Sequence record: OM355495.1
DNA length: 39,496 nt
Reading direction: 5' to 3' (one strand)
From: Escherichia phage ZH4
Numbering within the stretch: position 1 is the first letter of the stretch; every line of letters starts with the position of its first letter. The translations under genes were made by a program, and so were the position numbers. Below the pieces are notes generated by a model that did no database searches, was not told the DNA's origin, and was given only the letters and a program-made list of their open reading frames with translations. Shown here one piece after another: positions 1 through 35,756 of this stretch.

Positions 1-1544
1 ATGCCTTGTGTTTCCGATTCAAACCCTTCAAACGTTATTCCATTGCCACAGTTTGTAGCTATGACATTATCCACAACAATGTCAGCAACATAGCGTTTGA
101 ATCCCATAGCTCCATGAGCACAGTCCCGAAAAACAAGGTTAGACATAGCACAGTTACGACTTCCACCAGCTACACTAGAAGACAGGTAAATGCCCAAGTC
201 TCTTACGTTTTCTACGTATAAACCATTTACCCAACAGTTCTTCGTAGTAGCAAACATCAGCCCTGAGTCTGGGGCATTAACCAGAGACACGTTGGTCAGT
301 GAGCATCTATTACCACCAAAGGTGAGAATATCAGCGACCCCGAACTGGGTGTTTTTTGCTTGGTTCCCGTCAATATGTAAGTCCTTGATGTGTACATCAT
401 CAGCACCCATGTTGTGTACTAGGTAATAAGCCTTAGCGTTATCTATGCAGATATTGTCAGCAAATTTTAGCCAACCACCAGCACCCACAAGGATTGTTTT
501 ATTTTTTATCGATAAGCCTGTGAAAATCCACGGATCTCCATTCTTGTTCTTAGGCGTGATCTTAATCGCACAGTAACCTGGAACAGAACCAGCATAATCA
601 AGAGCAGCCTGCAAAGTCTGTTGATCGTTTTTGCTACCGAACATAAAAGAACGAACATCAACAAAATCGTCAACCTGTAGTTCAAGTTGCCTGCCGTCTG
701 CACGGTCAACAATAACAACACCGTCCCCAGTAGAACCCGTATTAGGAACTACGGCATACTTGTTGTAAATACCTGATGCGGTCTTAGTAGCTACTAACCG
801 TCCTTCTTCTGTGGTATTAGTTCCTAGGTTAGCAAAGGTATCCAACTCTACTGCTATACCACCAATTAAAGATGCCCCACCTGACTCCTTTAATTCTGTT
901 CTCAAGGCAGCGTCACCCACACTAACCCACGCACCTAATCCAATCCCACCGGAAGTTTCAGGAGTTGAACCAGCAGGGACGTTCTTTGGAAGCGTGCCAT
1001 CCCAGCGGTAATAATCACCATCCTCTTCCCATAGCAGTACCTCGTTCCATGTTATAACGTTGAAGCCTTTCTCGAAGGATCGACGGGTAATATAGCCAAT
1101 TAGACCGGATGCCTTGATGCTCTCAGCGATTCGTCGTGCTTCGTCCTCGCTATCCTTAGCGTTGCCAGCAGAGCTGCTAGCAGCATCGGCATATTCCTTC
1201 GCTAAGTCAACCGTTTGGTCTCGACCTTCTTCTGCAATATGGATAGCCTGAAGCTCTGCATTGGTCAGGTCACTAGCTGTCAACACTGAGCCATTCCTGA
1301 AGTCTACCACTAAGTCAGTTCCAGTCTGACGGTGAATACGAACGATGTCGAAACCTGATTGGTCAACCAACATCTCAATCATCGTTGGATTAAGGAAGCG
1401 GTAATCGCTACCAACTTCCAGTACACGGTTCAGGGTAGGGTTAGAGCTATTCACCAGCGTAACAACAACAAACGTTCTGGCTAGGTAGTCGAACTCAATC
1501 CTGTACTGAGTGTTTCCTGAAGGGAATTGTGTAATCGTGGACAT
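1..1544 (-). CDS. Tail fiber / tailspike (T7 gene 17 homolog), N-terminal part; ATG at 1544, ORF runs off the window start and continues at 39369 across the circular junction (whole gene about 751 aa)
   Basis: Own translation of minus strand from ATG at 1544 (RBS AGGAGG upstream) gives [33 protein letters not shown]..., matching the T7 gp17 N-terminal region (FEYLARKFVVVTL). Reading frame is continuous with track ORF 38658..39476 via the 127-bp overlap. Absent from the ORF track only because there is no stop inside the window. Confidence 0.85.
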
Positions 1545-1591
1545 TATGCCTCCTTTGTGATTTTAAATGGAGACCTATGGTAGCGCCTCCA

Positions 1592-1614
1592 GTTTCCTAT
1601 AGTGATAGTTTAGT
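1592..1614 (-). promoter_or_regulatory. Phage RNAP promoter (phi17-like), minus sense CTAAACTATCACTATAGGAAA, predicted +1 near 1597
   Basis: Match to the 11-copy phage promoter family in this window; sits just upstream of the gene 17 start and overlaps the gp16 stop. Confidence 0.8.
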
Positions 1615-4600
1615 CCTTGATGTGGATACCTTGCTCCTCAAACGTTCCCAGTAGCAACTTCTGGGTAATCGGGTCGTTCGGAACCAGTTCACGGAACGTA
1701 TTATACATCCCGGTCATGTAGTCACGCTCGTTGACACGAGTATCGGACTTGAGGTAGCCAGCCAAGTTGTAAGCCGAAGCGCCAACGTTAGCAGCATATC
1801 CGAAAGCTGGAACCTGCTCCAAGAAGTTACCAACAATATTCATCACAGGGTCACTTGTAGCCGCACCATACGCGATGGCACGTTCAGGCTTCTCTGTAGG
1901 CGAACGAGGTAGGATAGACGAACGGAGCAGCTTAGTGTCCTCGTACCCAGCGATACCACCCAGAATGTTAGCTACCCCAAGTGGTCCACCGAGATGTGAA
2001 CTACGTGATAGAGCCGCATATCCAATCATCGTCGGGTCCAGAGCTTGCTTGAGGTAGTCACGGTCTCGACCATCCTGCATAGCGTAGGCCTTGACATGCG
2101 CCTGAGCCATGTAGTAGATGCCAGCAAGACCCATAGAGATCACAGTTGACAGAGCAGCGTCCATCGCTCGGTTGTTCTTCGTGGCGTTATAGAAGGTTCG
2201 CATGGTACGTCCATTGATAGACTTGATGACGAAGTTCTTAAACTGGAGGACAGTCTTAGCGAGAGGACCGTAAGCCTTGGCGTCCATGTTTGACAGCTTA
2301 TGAGGCCGGAGTAACGTTTCGTCAGCGATGGTGTCACCCATACGCCACAAGTCCATAGCCCTTGGGTCCTGACTGAACGCCTTCTTATCCTTGATCGTGT
2401 ACTTCCCGTCTGGACCACGCGTCACTGACTCACGGATTAGGGACTTAATACCCTTCCACTGCTCGTCAGAGATACCAGCGGTCTTCAGCCAGCGGTCATC
2501 GAACTTACGCTTACTGCCAGTCAGACTATGCTCCACGATGTCAGACAGGAAGCCTTGACGCCCAGCATCTAACAGGTAGTTTGTCGTACCGTTGAGGACT
2601 TTAGTGAACGGAGAGCGTACTGCAAGTTCACCAGTGTAATACTTGGCAGAGCCTAAAGCCGTAGCCGTAGGTTTACTCAGGGAGCTGTAAGCTCGGAGGC
2701 GGTCTATAACATCCTGTTTAGACGGACGGATTGAGTCATCCAGTTCCTTACCGAAGATAACATTGTGCAGGTCCTTAATCTCTGAGGCCCCGACCTTCTT
2801 GTTACGGAAGGCTAGGTCACGGAAAATCGGGACTCCATGTAGCAGTGCACGAACGTTACCACGAGCCAGCATACCACCAATCTCCGTTAAGTTCTGAACA
2901 CCCATGTAGGCATTCTTAGCGAAGAACGATAGGTCTGTCATTGTGCGCATAACTGTAGCGAAGGCTGCATCGTCAGCACCATCACGTCGAGCACGACCAG
3001 TGAGAATTTTCAAGGTGTCACGTAAGGTAGATACCTCACCTTTCAACTTGCCGTCATCACCAGCCTTGTTCATCATGGTCTCAACCAAATCCTTCATGTC
3101 CTTCGTTGTCTTGCCTGTACCAGCCATGATAGCAATGTCACCATTAACTCGACGGTTGTAGGCCGGGACAATCTTGTCCATGTCCCACTCACGTAGACTA
3201 TTTACGCTGAAAGCCTTACCATTAGGCAGGATTATTTCCATGTCGTTATCGAACAGGTTGCGAGCCTCAAGGAAGTTATTGTTCTCCAGACCGACCAGAC
3301 CGTTGATGTTTTCTTCCATTACGGATGAACGCTCAAACTGCTCTGTATGGGAGATACCATAAGCCTTATCATTAGCATACTTCTCTACCATATCCATAGT
3401 CACCTCTGGTGCTGCTTGAGATGCGTTACCAGATGTAGTTTCACCAGCAGTAGGGGCCTGATCATCTACAGCAGTCTTCTGCCCTTTGGCAGCTGCCGCA
3501 GCCGCTTCAGCTTCAGTTGTTGCTTTGGTGATTCTGTCTCGGACCTTATCAGCCTGTCCTTTCATGTAGTCGAGACGCTCGGTGTTAATACGGACGTGAG
3601 ACTTCTGGGTCTCAATCATCTGCTTCCGACTCTCAATCTTAACAGGAATGGTCTTGCTCTTAGGCTTAGCAGCTAGCTTTTCTTCCAACTCCTTCAGCTT
3701 AGCTTCATGAGAAGCCAGTCGGTCCTTGGAGTTCTGGAGTTTCTTTTCACGGTCTGCAACTCGCTTCTCAGCGTTGGTAAGTACGTCTTTGAGCTCAGCT
3801 ACCTTATCAATTGCCTGTGTAGCAGCATCGTCCAGTTTCATCTGGTCACGGGCTGTGTTTACAGAAGAACGAGGATTTGGTGCAGTACCCACAGTCTTAC
3901 CTGCTGCTGGTTGAGATGACCGTAACTGCTCTGCTAACATCTCGTCCACTCGCGCCTTGACTTCAGGTCTTGACGCATAGCTTGTCAGCCATGACTTCTT
4001 GATTGCCTCCTGTAATGCCTCTGGGCTTCCAAGCTCCTTGATATAAAGCTGCTTCATCTGAGAACTATAGACTACAGGAACGTAGGTCCCCTTGAATCTA
4101 CTACCCGGAAAGATAGACTGAGCGTCTGTACGGCCAAACATCGCTGGGTTCTCCATCATCTCGCGCTTTGCATCAAACTGGTTCTTCAGCAGGTCATAGA
4201 CTTTCAGTTCCCCCGGAGTAAGTTCAGTCTTCAGGTTTCCGCTACCATCTTCAATCGCCAAAGCTACGCGCTTATAAACATCCTCACGCAGAGCTGAGTT
4301 ATCTCGCCAGAATGCTGTCTGGAAGTATGGGTCCTTGAGCGCCTCAGTAACCGCATCGTCGATGTCGTTGTAGAACCGATGGTCCACAGCACGAAGTCTC
4401 TCGAATACGTCTGACGCAGTGGTCCCGATTTTACCTGAGGCCCCTGACTGCATACCAGTCGGTGAACGCACTAAGTCAGCAGCGACTCCACGAATCTCAG
4501 GGTTCTCAGACCGAAGCAGCTTCAGGCCAATCTCAGTCAGGCCGCCAAGGTTAACACCAGCAGCGGCACGTTCAGGCTCAATCACTTCGTCAAAGACCTG

Positions 4601-5998
4601 ACGTGTCCTAGGATTCAGAGGGTTCTCACCAATCAGGATTGAACCATCTTCGAGTCGTACACTACCCGGCTCGTTCGGAACGTCAGCGAACCTAACTCCT
4701 TGATGACTAAAGGTCTGCTCACCTTCCTGAATAGGGAGACGAGACAGGTCCTGACCGTCAACGTTACGGGCTGTCTCGCGAGCTTCCAGACGTGTAGCTG
4801 GACCAGCGAACTCGTTAGTGTTACGACCTAAGGCTCTGCCTAAGCCATCAGCGATAGCAGTCATACCACCACCGAAGAGAGCACCACCAAGGATAGCTTC
4901 AGCCACATGAGCGTCACCACCAGCCACTGAGGTACGGGCCATCTCAGACACACCAGCCAGTGCTCCAGTTTGAGCAGCCACGGTGAACATCTTGTTTACC
5001 AGCTTACCCCCTTTACCAACCTGTCCAGCGATAGGAACGTAGGTCAGAGGGTCTACACCAGCACCAATCACACCAGCAGCTAACTGGGCACCAGTCCCAG
5101 CCTTGGCCTTCTCTTGGTCCAACTTCTGGTTCTCAAGAGCCAAGTTAATAAGCTCGGTCAGGTTCTGAGGAGACCCGCCAGTAAGGACCCCATAATACTG
5201 AGGCAGAACCCCAGCGTTACGAATCTGGTCCAGCTCCTCGCGAGTCCACTTATGGTTGTTCCATCTGGTAGGGTTAAACACATCGCCAATGACATCCAGT
5301 GAGTCCTCGGTCTGACCAGCGCGGATAGCCACGCCGACCATAGAGTTCTTCACTTCAGCTTCTGTAGCCGAACCGAAACCGAACCATGTAGAGCGGTCCT
5401 CTCGTTCCTGCATGGTATCGCCGGTAGCCTTATAGAACATCTCACCGAACGATTCGTTGGGAGCTTCAGGTGCTTGACCCTCAATATTCAGACCAGCAGC
5501 GGTCGGAAGGTTCTCACCCAGAGCTACTTTAGGTTTAGCCTTGAGTCCTTCCGTGAGTGCGTCAAATACGTTAGCGCTTACTGGTGGAGTCTTTGGGCTA
5601 ATGCCATTGAGTGCTCGTGCGACTCCCTTCTGATAGACTTCAGGGTCGTACCGGGAGCCTGTCTCATGGAAGCTGATAGCTTGAGCCAGAGAAGACAGGG
5701 TGTCAGGGTCCGAAAGGTCGAGACTCTGGGTAGCTGGAATACCAGTTGCAGCCACCACTGAGTCAATATAAGCCTTAGTGTCGTTCTCGTTAGGAGGCGC
5801 CCATCGGTTGATAATCTTCTCGATGGAGTCATAGCCTTGGCGACCGTAACTTAATAAGTTCTTACCCAAGGCCCGCACACCAGACTCTGGGCTATCAAAT
5901 ATTACAAACTCCCCATCATCGCCAATAGCTCCTTCCCATTGGTCCTTAGACTTACGGATATTTCCGGGGTTCGAATTTCTTATACCACGTGTTGCCAT
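1610..5998 (-). CDS. Internal virion protein D (T7 gp16 homolog), 1462 aa, with non-T7 N-terminal domain
   Basis: Track ORF; central and C-terminal regions align with T7 gp16 (e.g. MENPAMFG...SIFPGSRFKGTYVPVVY, NAYMGVQNLTEIGGM). RBS GGAG upstream of ATG. N-terminus (MATRGIRNSNPGNIR...) does not resemble the T7 SLT domain. Confidence 0.9.
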   Translation of the reverse strand: MATRGIRNSNPGNIRKSKDQWEGAIGDDGEFVIFDSPESGVRALGKNLLSYGRQGYDSIEKIINRWAPPNENDTKAYIDSVVAATGIPATQSLDLSDPDTLSSLAQAISFHETGSRYDPEVYQKGVARALNGISPKTPPVSANVFDALTEGLKAKPKVALGENLPTAAGLNIEGQAPEAPNESFGEMFYKATGDTMQEREDRSTWFGFGSATEAEVKNSMVGVAIRAGQTEDSLDVIGDVFNPTRWNNHKWTREELDQIRNAGVLPQYYGVLTGGSPQNLTELINLALENQKLDQEKAKAGTGAQLAAGVIGAGVDPLTYVPIAGQVGKGGKLVNKMFTVAAQTGALAGVSEMARTSVAGGDAHVAEAILGGALFGGGMTAIADGLGRALGRNTNEFAGPATRLEARETARNVDGQDLSRLPIQEGEQTFSHQGVRFADVPNEPGSVRLEDGSILIGENPLNPRTRQVFDEVIEPERAAAGVNLGGLTEIGLKLLRSENPEIRGVAADLVRSPTGMQSGASGKIGTTASDVFERLRAVDHRFYNDIDDAVTEALKDPYFQTAFWRDNSALREDVYKRVALAIEDGSGNLKTELTPGELKVYDLLKNQFDAKREMMENPAMFGRTDAQSIFPGSRFKGTYVPVVYSSQMKQLYIKELGSPEALQEAIKKSWLTSYASRPEVKARVDEMLAEQLRSSQPAAGKTVGTAPNPRSSVNTARDQMKLDDAATQAIDKVAELKDVLTNAEKRVADREKKLQNSKDRLASHEAKLKELEEKLAAKPKSKTIPVKIESRKQMIETQKSHVRINTERLDYMKGQADKVRDRITKATTEAEAAAAAAKGQKTAVDDQAPTAGETTSGNASQAAPEVTMDMVEKYANDKAYGISHTEQFERSSVMEENINGLVGLENNNFLEARNLFDNDMEIILPNGKAFSVNSLREWDMDKIVPAYNRRVNGDIAIMAGTGKTTKDMKDLVETMMNKAGDDGKLKGEVSTLRDTLKILTGRARRDGADDAAFATVMRTMTDLSFFAKNAYMGVQNLTEIGGMLARGNVRALLHGVPIFRDLAFRNKKVGASEIKDLHNVIFGKELDDSIRPSKQDVIDRLRAYSSLSKPTATALGSAKYYTGELAVRSPFTKVLNGTTNYLLDAGRQGFLSDIVEHSLTGSKRKFDDRWLKTAGISDEQWKGIKSLIRESVTRGPDGKYTIKDKKAFSQDPRAMDLWRMGDTIADETLLRPHKLSNMDAKAYGPLAKTVLQFKNFVIKSINGRTMRTFYNATKNNRAMDAALSTVISMGLAGIYYMAQAHVKAYAMQDGRDRDYLKQALDPTMIGYAALSRSSHLGGPLGVANILGGIAGYEDTKLLRSSILPRSPTEKPERAIAYGAATSDPVMNIVGNFLEQVPAFGYAANVGASAYNLAGYLKSDTRVNERDYMTGMYNTFRELVPNDPITQKLLLGTFEEQGIHIKD

Positions 5999-6429
5999 GT
6001 CTTTCTCCTTAAGATATTTCTAATAGAAACCGTACTCACTCCATAGGAACTAGCTAGGAATGAAACCTTTAGGCCGCTAGACCGTATGTTCTTCACATCA
6101 GTCTCTGTCAATTTGGATACTCCTATTGAGCTTCCAGACGCTTGACGACCTCTTTCCACCTTGTCTTTAATGTTGTCAGCCTGAGTTCCAGCCTCAAGAT
6201 GGTCAGGGTTTATGCAGGACGGATTGTCGCACTTATGGCGTACAACATACCCTTCAGGTATAGGACCACTGGCAAGCTCATAAGCTAGTCGATGTGCTCT
6301 ATACTTAACTCTGTTAATCATTATCGTACCATAACCGTCAGAATCTACGGTCCCAGTGAATCGGATACAGCCAGAGCTTTCAGCTACTGACAATTCTGCC
6401 AGTCTCTCACTGGCTGTCCCGTTCTTCAT
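5980..6429 (-). CDS. HNH homing endonuclease (intact), 149 aa
   Basis: HNH motif VVRHKCDNPSCINPDHLEAG plus a C-terminal DNA-binding-like segment KLTETDVKNIR...STVSIRNILRRKTW; RBS GGAG upstream; inserted between gp15 and gp16. Confidence 0.85.
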   Translation of the reverse strand: MKNGTASERLAELSVAESSGCIRFTGTVDSDGYGTIMINRVKYRAHRLAYELASGPIPEGYVVRHKCDNPSCINPDHLEAGTQADNIKDKVERGRQASGSSIGVSKLTETDVKNIRSSGLKVSFLASSYGVSTVSIRNILRRKTWQHVV

Positions 6430-6433
6430 TATG

Positions 6434-24357: not shown

Positions 24358-24816
24358 TTAACCACGGTCGGAAGTGATCAGTTCATTGGTAGACAGCCAG
24401 CGTTGCAAGTCGAAACTTGGACACGCCTTTGGCGCTACGTCATGGTGCGCTTTGATTTCTGCCTGAGGGTACAGGACCTTCAGATCAGCCAGCTTGTTGC
24501 GCAGGGAGTTCATCTGGGCTGGAGTGAAGTTAGCTTCAAACTGACCCTTAGCGTTGATTCCACCTACAAGGCAGACGCCTACGGACCGGGAGTTCCAGTC
24601 CTTAACGTGTGACCCTACGACATTGACCGGGCGACCTTCTTCCACAGTGCCATCACGCTTGATGATAAAGTGGTAGCCAATTGCCAGCCAGCCCTGCTGC
24701 TTATGCCACATCTCAATGGTCTCACGACCAATGTCCATAGTCGGCGGGGTCGCTGAACAGTGGACGAAGATTGCGTCTGTTGACTTGCGTGGCATGAATT
24801 GTACTTTACTTCCCAT
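24358..24816 (-). CDS. N-acetylmuramoyl-L-alanine amidase / T7 lysozyme (gp3.5 homolog), about 152 aa from ATG at 24816
   Basis: STDAIFVHCSAT, WHKQQGWL.IGYHFIIKRDGTVEEGR, VGSH.K, GVCLVGGI, FTPAQM.SLR, HH.VAPKACPSFDL.RW all conserved with T7 gp3.5; RBS GGTGG before MGSKVQF. Confidence 0.95.
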   Translation of the reverse strand: MGSKVQFMPRKSTDAIFVHCSATPPTMDIGRETIEMWHKQQGWLAIGYHFIIKRDGTVEEGRPVNVVGSHVKDWNSRSVGVCLVGGINAKGQFEANFTPAQMNSLRNKLADLKVLYPQAEIKAHHDVAPKACPSFDLQRWLSTNELITSDRG

Positions 24817-24818
24817 TA

Positions 24819-25191
24819 TTATTTCCACCTCTTGTGGTTCCTGATTCGACTTATGGTTGTCTCACTTACTGAGTATTTTTCAGCCATAAACTTAAGGGTC
24901 TCGCTTGAGGTGCGAATATCCTTAACGTCATCTTCAGTTAGTTTTGAATTAAATGTCCTGCGTACTGAGCAGTCCATCATGTTTTCTGCCTGAGTCCCCC
25001 AACTCAAGGTGCTCAATGTTTACGCATGCACGGTTATCACACTTGTGTCTTACGACAAGACCTCCCGGTATAGCACCATTGGTCTCTATCCAAGCGGCTC
25101 TATGAGCACCCATAGATTGGCCACGGAATTTACGTCTACCATAGCCATCCTTATTGCGACTCTTAGCCCACTCGATGCAGTCACTTTCCAT
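24819..25191 (-). pseudogene. HNH homing endonuclease disrupted by +1 frameshift in a C5 (minus G5) homopolymer at 24996..25000
   Basis: Track ORF 24949..25200 carries the HNH motif (VVRHKCDNRACVNIEHLELG) and track ORF 24819..25016 carries the C-terminal segment (KLTEDDVKDIR...TISRIRNHKRWK). Removing one G from GGGGG restores ...HLELGTQAENMMD..., collinear with the intact paralog at 5980..6429. Confidence 0.75.
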
Positions 25192-25621
25192 TATAAACAA
25201 CGAGCTCTACTACGACCAGATTCAGATGTGACTGGAAGCGCTGTGCGTCAGTCGTGTGCATCTGGAGCAACTTATGGTTGAAGACGTGTGAGTTGCTGAT
25301 CTTCACGTAAACTTCTTCAGGCTTTCCGTGGACGATGAACGTCTGGCCTACACCAATCTTGTCGATGGTCAGGACTTCACGTTTAACGGTGACAGGAGGG
25401 ACGCTTGAGGCTGGCAGGACTTGTGGTTGACCGTCCTCTTTGATGGTATACAGCTGCTTCTGAAGGCTATTATTAACCCCTTCAAAGTAGGATAGCCCAA
25501 GGGTACACGTTTCACCATTTCCCCAGCGACCTGTGGTTCCATTAGTCTCAAACACTAGAGGGTCACTGACCGTTCCTGTAACTGTTACAGGGAACTTGTA
25601 ACCTTTTGCTTTCTGAGTCAT
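25181..25621 (-). CDS. Hypothetical protein, 146 aa (orphan ORF between endonuclease I and the HNH/lysozyme genes)
   Basis: Track ORF with RBS GGAG and ATGA overlap with the gene 3 stop; Thr/Val/Gly-rich; no T7 counterpart recognised. Confidence 0.6.
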   Translation of the reverse strand: MTQKAKGYKFPVTVTGTVSDPLVFETNGTTGRWGNGETCTLGLSYFEGVNNSLQKQLYTIKEDGQPQVLPASSVPPVTVKREVLTIDKIGVGQTFIVHGKPEEVYVKISNSHVFNHKLLQMHTTDAQRFQSHLNLVVVELVVYNGK

Positions 25622-26073
25622 TTATTAGCTCCTTTCTTCTTGGGGATGAGGATGCCGGAAGGAAGACGTACAGTCGCCTCTCGTAGCCACTCAACCGGGA
25701 TGAACTTATCGGCATACTTATAGCCATTCTTTTCGCACCATGCGCCATACGTGGTCGGAGACCCTTTGTATAACTTGGAGCGGGAACTTGAGAACACGAA
25801 CCGGATGTCTAACTCTGGATACTGTTCTCGTACCAGAAGGTGCTTCTTACGGTCATCACTATCGAAGATACCCTTGGTCTCCACGATGATACCGTTAGGA
25901 AGGATAAAGTCTGGTGTGTACTTGTGGTCGGAAGCCGGAATCACATAGTTGATATAATGGCTTTCGTACTCCGCTTTGACGCCGTTCTGTTCCAGCCACT
26001 GCTGGTTCTTGGCTTCAAGTCCAGAGCGGTAGGCACCCACAGAGTGCCCCCGTTTTGCAGACCATTGGGCCAT
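25618..26073 (-). CDS. Endonuclease I, Holliday-junction resolvase (T7 gp3 homolog), 151 aa
   Basis: AYRSGLE, YVIPASDHKYTPDFILPNGIIVETKG, SDDRKKHLLVREQYPELDIRFVFSSSRSKLYKGSPTTYG.WCEK closely match T7 gp3. Confidence 0.95.
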   Translation of the reverse strand: MAQWSAKRGHSVGAYRSGLEAKNQQWLEQNGVKAEYESHYINYVIPASDHKYTPDFILPNGIIVETKGIFDSDDRKKHLLVREQYPELDIRFVFSSSRSKLYKGSPTTYGAWCEKNGYKYADKFIPVEWLREATVRLPSGILIPKKKGANK

Positions 26074-26771
26074 TAGAAGTCGTAATCGCCACCAGAGTTG
26101 GAGTCATCACCACCTTCGGAACCATCGTCACCGAAGTCATCGTCACCGAAGTCACCATCGGTTGACGCTTTGTAGCCAGTACCGAGGTCTTCATCATCGC
26201 CCCAGCCACCATCGCCACCAGCACCATCACCTTTCCACTCCTTCAGTTCTACCAGAAGGCAGGACTCAAGCTGGAGCTTAACGCTTGCACCAGTCGCAGC
26301 GTTCCACTTGAACGGCAGGACTTTAAACTTGACCTTCAGTTTTGAGCCAGCACCAATATTCGGGACGTCACGGATGAGTTTAGCATCGGTGTCGTAGAAC
26401 CGTAATACGATAGGCTCTGACTTACCATCCTTCAGGTAAGACGCGAAGCATTTAAACTTCAGGGTAACAGTACCATCACCATTCTCAATCCACGGCATGT
26501 CGCCCTCTCGTGGTTCAATAGGCTTCTTGCCACGCTGAACCTGAGGCGGGTTCTTCTCGTGGTCTGCTAGTGCTTTCGCATACGCATCGTCGTGAATCTT
26601 CTGTAAGACATCAATCATCTTACGGACCTTCGGGTTGCTCAGGTCGAATGTCAGGTTAACCTTATGCTCACCACGCTCGTTGAACTTGGTGTCTGCTTTG
26701 TTCAGCCATGCGTAAGGCTCAACGATACCAGCTACCGGAGTGGTGAAAGTCTTCAGTTGCTCTTTAGCCAT
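26073..26771 (-). CDS. Single-stranded DNA-binding protein (T7 gp2.5 homolog), 232 aa
   Basis: EPYAW, NPPQVQRGKKP, EGDMP...NGDGT.T.KFKC.AS, GAGSKLKVKFKV.PFKWNAATGASVKLQLES, acidic C-tail ending DYDF; RBS AGGAG. Confidence 0.95.
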   Translation of the reverse strand: MAKEQLKTFTTPVAGIVEPYAWLNKADTKFNERGEHKVNLTFDLSNPKVRKMIDVLQKIHDDAYAKALADHEKNPPQVQRGKKPIEPREGDMPWIENGDGTVTLKFKCFASYLKDGKSEPIVLRFYDTDAKLIRDVPNIGAGSKLKVKFKVLPFKWNAATGASVKLQLESCLLVELKEWKGDGAGGDGGWGDDEDLGTGYKASTDGDFGDDDFGDDGSEGGDDSNSGGDYDF

Positions 26772-35458: not shown

Positions 35459-35639
35459 ATGCTACATACCTCCTGTATCTATGGTCGGTGACTATCTGTA
35501 TTGGAGGGATTATGATTAATATCACCCTCCTTCCATCGGTGCAAGCCTTAGGTAAGAACTCGGAGTCTGCCTCCTAAGGTCTTGCATAAAGTCTGCATAT
35601 GTATATTCACTACAGTAATACTATAAGTAACCGGGGGGT

Positions 35640-35662
35640 CTTCCCTATAGTGATAGTTAAGT
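35640..35662 (-). promoter_or_regulatory. Phage RNAP promoter (phiOR-like) downstream of terminase, minus sense CTTAACTATCACTATAGGGAAGA, +1 near 35645
   Basis: Consensus copy about 95 nt after the large terminase stop, preceding the 19.5-like ORF and the genome end region. Confidence 0.8.
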
Positions 35663-35756
35663 CCAAACTCCTTGTAAAACAGTAGGTTAGACTGGTAGTA
35701 ACTATAGGTTACTAACCGCGTATTCATGCAGCTTTCACCCATAGTTATTCATTCAG

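Follow-up and report, generated by a model that had tools for sequence, protein, structure and literature searches.

A predicted free-standing HNH homing endonuclease gene of Escherichia phage ZH4 (OM355495.1) is split into two overlapping reading frames by a single extra base in a short homopolymer. This change is probably a real and very recent inactivating mutation, which would represent the first step in the decay of the gene. The window (the whole stretch of 39,496 nt that was analysed) is a complete or near-complete Kayfunavirus genome (K1F-like, T7 group, Autographiviridae) with its genes on the minus strand, and it shares ~94-95% genome-wide identity with Escherichia phages PH1061, ST31 and SD6. 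The gene, its parts and its neighbours are located as follows.

24819..25191, minus strand: the whole frameshifted HNH endonuclease gene, 373 nt versus 372 nt (123 aa plus stop) in intact orthologs
24949..25191, minus strand: ORF A, 80 aa, starting at ATG 25191 (TTG 25200 being an upstream alternative) and stopping at 24949
24819..25016, minus strand: ORF B, 65 aa, in the +1 frame relative to ORF A
24996..25000, C5 on the plus and G5 on the minus strand: the homopolymer with the extra base; orthologs have G4 (TTG/CTG GGG ACT) or G3 (CTT GGG ACT)
26771..26073, minus strand: SSB gp2.5, upstream
26073..25618, minus strand: endonuclease I gp3, upstream
25621..25181, minus strand: 146-aa gene 3.01-like ORF (PHROG 16385/15211), the upstream neighbour, with an 11-nt overlap with the HNH start
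24816..24358, minus strand: gene 3.5 amidase/lysozyme, the downstream neighbour

On the minus strand, gene 3.5 is followed by a 71-aa ORF and then by the primase-helicase gene (gp4).

On the plus strand, positions 24996..25000 read CCCCC, and the corresponding G5 run of the minus strand carries the extra base. ORF A encodes the N-terminal β-sheet domain and the HNH β-hairpin and then runs out of frame for 14 residues to a stop codon. From about position 24995 (TQAEN...), ORF B encodes the α-helix of the ββα-Me motif and then a C-terminal three-helix, HTH-like module, and the two ORFs overlap at 24949..25016. The first-pass annotation, made from the letters of the sequence, had described an endonuclease gene broken by one surplus base in the C5 run, and all of its coordinates hold. 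In the nucleotide alignment to the SD6 and PH1061 orthologs (99.2% and 98.9% identity, respectively), the sole gap is located in the G run, with G5 in the window and G4 in both orthologs. The first-pass annotation had also proposed that deletion of one base joins the two halves; when one G was removed, ORF A and ORF B were indeed fused into a 123-aa protein, which gives a full match to Pfam HNH_3 and is 100% identical to the SD6 protein. Besides the indel, the SD6 gene differs from the frameshifted one by two synonymous and no non-synonymous changes. As written, the locus would be a null allele of the HNH gene, on the expectation that the split products are inactive. In the annotation, ORF A and ORF B are best entered as a single HNH homing endonuclease gene with a frameshift (flagged as a pseudogene or as 'frameshift, verify') rather than as two hypothetical proteins.

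The position of the break within the protein was determined by comparison with the family profile and with a structural model. The repaired protein matched Pfam HNH_3 with 60.2 bits (cut-off 24.8, E 1.4e-16) over residues 28-72, and ORF A alone scored 51.1 bits and covered only profile positions 2-38 of 46. In an alignment of 50 family sequences, the invariant residues are H49, C51, D52, C56, H61, L62, N70 and D73. H49, C51, D52, C56 and H61 are encoded in frame A, N70 and D73 in frame B, and they come to lie in one polypeptide only after the deletion of one G. The frame changes after G66, between the second β-strand and the α-helix of the ββα-Me motif. In HNH nucleases this α-helix bears the metal-ligand Asn, and because the break splits it off, neither fragment should be active alone. 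It had been suggested earlier that the catalytic domain and the DNA-binding segment occupy separate frames; the two frames and their overlap were borne out, but the boundary between the domains was misplaced, as the break falls inside the HNH_3 motif, ORF A ending at profile position 38 of 46.

The structural model was made with AlphaFold for an intact ortholog (P0002, 97% identical; mean pLDDT 83.9). In this model, β-strands 45-49 and 62-66 followed by helix 67-77 form the ββα-Me unit, and the C-terminal helices comprise residues 86-94, 99-106 and 110-117. The fold search of the PDB gave I-HmuI (1u3e) as the best match (prob 1.00, E 1.9e-3), followed by I-PpoI, with modest TM-scores. A sequence search of the PDB with the repaired protein returned only a spurious Nudix match (E 0.58), I-HmuI being reached by the fold search. 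The C-terminal module showed weak fold matches to HTH proteins, and HTH_7, HTH_3 or HTH_38 were found by Pfam on some homologs, with no significant Pfam match for a DNA-binding module on the repaired protein itself. The PHROG matches of the HNH protein were 59/6254 'HNH endonuclease'. On the basis of the sequence and model comparisons, the gene is assigned to Pfam HNH_3 and to the T7 gp7.7 family, with a predicted I-HmuI-like fold, as a putative free-standing homing endonuclease gene for which DNA cleavage is predicted.

The state of the gene in other genomes was assessed in 16 orthologous copies at the same locus, which come from phages SD6 and PH1061 and from 14 metagenomic Kayfunavirus-like contigs. 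The two phage copies are given below.

SD6 (locus L001), 1519..1890: intact HNH ortholog
PH1061 (locus L002), 1816..2187: ortholog annotated in its record as HNH endonuclease

All 16 orthologs are intact single ORFs of 123 aa with G4 or G3 at the critical site, and G5 was found in none of them. In each of the 14 contigs, the copy has the 3.01-like ORF on one side and the amidase gene on the other. For the eight distinct alleles, pairwise dN/dS ranged from 0.10 to 0.38, which indicates, at the level of sequence comparison, that the reading frame is under purifying selection in the other genomes. Moreover, six clusters of 123-aa proteins (89-98% identity) were present in a large protein collection, and the family is large: by tblastn, full-length matches were obtained in more than 1,000 phage records, with T7 gene 7.7 at 42% identity. 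Within 24985..25010 (minus strand), an 8-bp inverted repeat (CCUUGAGU/ACUCAGG) forms a small hairpin whose loop contains the G run, and the repeat occurs also in intact alleles. A 74%-identical allele at this locus was observed in two Logan contigs (L021 and L022, ERR3179230 and ERR2737798; HNH at ~2415..2794 of L021), in which the usual ATG start is ACG. In L021 the N-terminal region is still open and its sequence conserved, with an in-frame ATG three codons before the mutated start. The 97-aa proteins P0007 and P0008 were considered as N-terminally decayed alleles, and this was rejected on account of the open N-terminus of L021 and its upstream in-frame ATG. The 97-aa call of P0007 is probably too short rather than a sign of a truncated gene, and the gene would be intact with another start.

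A second HNH gene is present in the window.

5980..6429, minus strand: paralogous HNH endonuclease gene, intact, 149 aa, flanked by the internal virion protein genes 15 and 16

The earlier claim of an intact HNH gene between genes 15 and 16, collinear with the broken one, was well founded. The repaired protein is 44% identical to the 149-aa paralog over its full length (E 1e-33) and collinear with it. When the paralog was compared by tblastn with the window without any editing, two collinear HSPs were obtained (aa 13-81 in frame -2 and aa 78-146 in frame -3), which meet at the homopolymer run. Such agreement lies far beyond chance. The paralog occurs in ~16 of the 108 matching records at 75-84% identity and is absent, for instance, from ST31. 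In CR44b its ortholog is annotated as '7.7C predicted homing endonuclease', with an HTH noted. An unannotated, intact 149-aa HNH gene lies between genes 15 and 16 of SD6 as well (L007, 29818..30267; ~77% nucleotide identity to 5980..6429). At the same junction (5980..6433), the endonuclease genes of TM1 (OM908436), Ro45lw, Pipis and GA2A are annotated differently, and these phages match only the gene 15 flank. The gene 15/16 junction therefore looks like an insertion hotspot, judging from these alignments. Of the four HNH genes of PH1061, one follows the ligase gene and one occupies a T7 3.8-like position.

The distribution of the frameshifted gene is also patchy. Among 299 matching Kayfunavirus records of the phage collection, two full copies (SD6 and PH1061) and one remnant were found, and most records are without the gene; the records lacking it align as two pieces around an empty site. 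The first-pass annotation had placed both HNH genes at classic insertion points for mobile endonucleases, and the comparison with relatives supports it, as both genes are sporadic. Between genomes, the HNH gene is 97-99% identical and the flanking genes 78-97%, with only 83-85% for the first 100 nt of the lysozyme gene. A direct repeat of 12 nt, identical at 11 of 12 positions and with a spacing of 375 nt, is located exactly at both ends of the 375-nt HNH insert.

25183..25194: upstream copy of the direct repeat, ACTTTCCATTAT on the plus strand, at the HNH start
24808..24819: downstream copy, where the HNH gene stops and the lysozyme gene starts

When the empty sites were compared, the HNH start (ATGGAAAGTGA) proved to be a mimic of the lysozyme start (ATGGTAAGTAA). 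This mimicry keeps the C-terminus and stop of the upstream ORF as well as the 11-nt overlap. Both HNH genes thus appear, from their distribution and flanks, to behave as free-standing homing endonuclease genes.

Several further features of the flanks were observed. The 5' end of the lysozyme gene (24779..24816, ~38 nt) is present in the main HNH clade and in ZG49 as a variant tract, ATGGGAAGTAAAGTACAATTCATGCCACGCAAGTCAAC (MGSKVQFMPRKST), which differs from the endonuclease-free form (MVSKVQFNPRSRT) at ~10 of 38 positions; the variant was compared in loci L001, L002, L005, L013, L014 and L023 against L004, L010-L012, L024 and L026. The more diverged HNH clade (L024 and L026) keeps the endonuclease-free form of the lysozyme 5' end. 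The variant tract could be a co-conversion tract or a patch of cleavage immunity marking the target of the nuclease. In phage ZG49 (L005, KX669227, 1515..2955), only the last 108 nt of the HNH gene are kept, 98% identical and directly after endonuclease I. A block consisting of the lysozyme 5' end, the endonuclease I 3' end and the HNH remnant occurs there twice in tandem, owing to either a rearrangement or a misassembly. The 3' remnant of ZG49 looks, from its sequence, like a later stage of loss. The Kayfunavirus genomes may thus offer a snapshot of the homing-endonuclease life cycle, with empty sites, intact alleles under selection, a putative one-base null allele and the 3' remnant of ZG49. 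The upstream 146-aa ORF adjoining the mobile endonuclease is mosaic. Its C-terminal ~240 nt align with relatives (244/430 nt) and its 5' half is unrelated at the DNA level; the versions in relatives are 151-169 aa long, and PHROGs 16385/15211 match residues 53-146 only.

The explanation considered probable is that the locus records a genuine mutation, and we infer that the extra base is present in the phage DNA and not merely in the assembly. In other phages, the intact HNH gene would move between genomic backgrounds under purifying selection. In this phage, one G would have been added to the G4 run, most plausibly by replication slippage, and the resulting frame shift would part the half with the general base and β-hairpin from the half with the metal-binding Asn and the putative DNA-binding module. 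A homing endonuclease would bring no benefit to the carrier phage once its site is occupied, and therefore inactivating lesions would be tolerated. If the allele is real, it constitutes a natural knockout that could be set against SD6 or PH1061. The opposing view is possible but rather unlikely: the phage would really have G4 and an intact, active 123-aa endonuclease, and the deposited consensus would contain one G/C too many through over-calling of the homopolymer. An additional base in a homopolymer is the classic type of such an error, the 16 other copies are all intact, and the gene is otherwise pristine, with no non-synonymous change against SD6, as an artefact in an intact gene would look. 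Further decay was sought against SD6, and none was found besides the indel; the insertion is therefore either very young or an artefact. Moreover, all three private or near-private differences that lie in unconstrained homopolymers of G/C or T (including a T4 and a G6 run) are +1 insertions, which could hint at a mild bias towards over-calling. Against an error speaks the state of the remaining genome. No frameshift was found in ~27.7 kb of core genes with 92 homopolymer runs of at least 4, and the error rate per run must therefore be low. RNA polymerase, DNA polymerase, primase, portal, capsid, the tail genes, gp15, gp16 and terminase are of full length, and in the whole-window alignment to PH1061 and SD6 every non-triplet indel in conserved genes is offset within a few bases. 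Of the eight G/C runs of at least 5 in the window, five are in core genes, and all of these are in frame. Five G are also a short run for an error of this kind on most platforms. In comparison with five relatives, three other private 1-bp indels were detected (1561, 18214 and 35633), all non-coding, and the comparison genomes had 1-10 each. Private indels thus avoid coding DNA, as real mutations filtered by selection would. Random base-calling errors would fall mostly in the core coding 70% of the genome, which is not the case; the only coding frameshift sits in what appears to be a dispensable selfish gene, and this suggests a pattern of selection-filtered mutations. An assembly-wide homopolymer-error problem was considered separately and rejected, the core genes being intact and private indels no more numerous than in the five other genomes. 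A second assembly of the phage was looked for by exact-protein look-ups for ORF A, the lysozyme, the 146-aa ORF, endonuclease I and the paralog, which gave no match, and a gapped DNA pattern across the G run had no match in IMG/VR or JGI metagenomes.

The remaining explanations accept the G5 run as real and ascribe a function to the split gene. It is improbable that the indel is compensated ('savior' indel), with a few ribosomes slipping +1 on G GGG G and yielding traces of wild-type protein, that is, an attenuated but active endonuclease. The sequence UUG GGG GAC allows perfect re-pairing of the P-site tRNA-Gly from GGG to GGG in the +1 frame, although this is true of any G4-to-G5 insertion, and the +1-shifted product is exactly the wild-type protein. 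The shift is conserved in none of the 16 orthologs, however, the A-site codon GAC is neither a stop nor rare, no Shine-Dalgarno-like stimulator is present upstream of the G run, and the local RNA fold is not significant (z = -1.08). Unstimulated slippage on five G is expected to remain well below 1%. The absence of the shift from the orthologs and the lack of stimulators leave an evolved slippage site unsupported; a slippage site had been one of the three options listed in the first-pass annotation. A programmed +1 frameshift of the prfB type was likewise rejected, with 0/16 orthologs having the shift and no stimulators. Low-level compensatory frameshifting on G runs does have a precedent in herpes simplex thymidine kinase (PMC5009743), where a one-base indel in a G run is also concerned and rare ribosomal slippage could restore the protein; in contrast, that allele has 7-8 G and is drug-selected, and here there are 5 G with no evidence of selection or of a product. 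Marginally less probable still is the proposal that slippage keeps homing low and less toxic and that G4/G5 replication slippage toggles the selfish gene on and off. The least probable of all is a two-piece enzyme or a set of neofunctionalised fragments, in which the 80-aa N-terminal and ~53-65-aa C-terminal products would reassemble or, for example, the HTH fragment would bind DNA. In its favour, both reading frames are open and internal ATG codons occur in ORF B at 24980/24977, but the split cuts the ββα-Me motif itself, and no Shine-Dalgarno sequence precedes the ORF B starts. The two-ORF arrangement is, moreover, found in 0/16 orthologs, and no selection signature could have accumulated. 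A very recent inactivating mutation is thus retained as the probable explanation.

The frameshifted HNH gene represents ordinary biology, or else a trivial error, and involves no new mechanism or family, as comparison with described systems makes clear. I-HmuI of Bacillus phage SPO1 (PDB 1u3e) shares the N-terminal β domain, the ββα-Me HNH motif and the C-terminal helical module over 132 aligned columns, but the sequences are only ~20% identical, and the fold comparison gives a TM-score of 0.47, normalised to the query. I-HmuI is intron-encoded and nicks DNA, whereas the gene described here is free-standing and its motif is interrupted by the frameshift. T7 gene 7.7 and the HNH genes of the T7 group (e.g. 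'7.7C' of CR44b) belong to the same Pfam family and size class and are likewise free-standing between conserved Autographiviridae genes. In contrast to T7 gene 7.7, which is positioned between 7.3 and 8, the present gene is at the 3.01/3.5 junction and frameshifted. Frameshifted homing endonuclease genes are common in phages, where frameshift, truncation and deletion are recognised marks of these elements; an example is gp115/gp116 of vibriophage ICP1, an HNH+AP2 gene, and other homing endonuclease genes of ICP1 are frameshifted as well (PMC10448857). The gp115/gp116 gene is also free-standing, variably present, located beside essential genes and split by a frameshift into adjacent ORFs; it differs in having an AP2 DNA-binding domain and in being split between domains, whereas the gene in the window has an HTH-like module and is split inside the catalytic motif. 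The cycle of invasion, decay and loss of homing endonucleases is textbook knowledge (PMC13619312). In T4, the defunct I-TevIII gene similarly persists after inactivation, and decay is expected after fixation at the site (PMC2790892, PMC13619312). Unlike I-TevIII, the gene in the window gives no pointer to mobilisation in trans, and its lesion is a single base, so that any decay would be at its very start.

One further homopolymer difference was observed in the window. Compared with the relatives examined, the G6 run at 35633..35638 carries one base more, with a gap in 4/5 comparison genomes, and it is a second private +1 difference in a homopolymer. The run lies ~120 nt downstream of the gene for the terminase large subunit. 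For the surrounding region, ~170 records at 95-99% identity were retrieved, and among the matches listed the aligned stretch is 239-240 nt versus 241 nt in the query. A 64-aa ORF (35548..35742) that holds this run was considered and judged non-coding, as the equivalent stretch of the annotated relative ASO2B is occupied by a phage promoter and a terminator, which lie there between gene 19 and gene 19.5.
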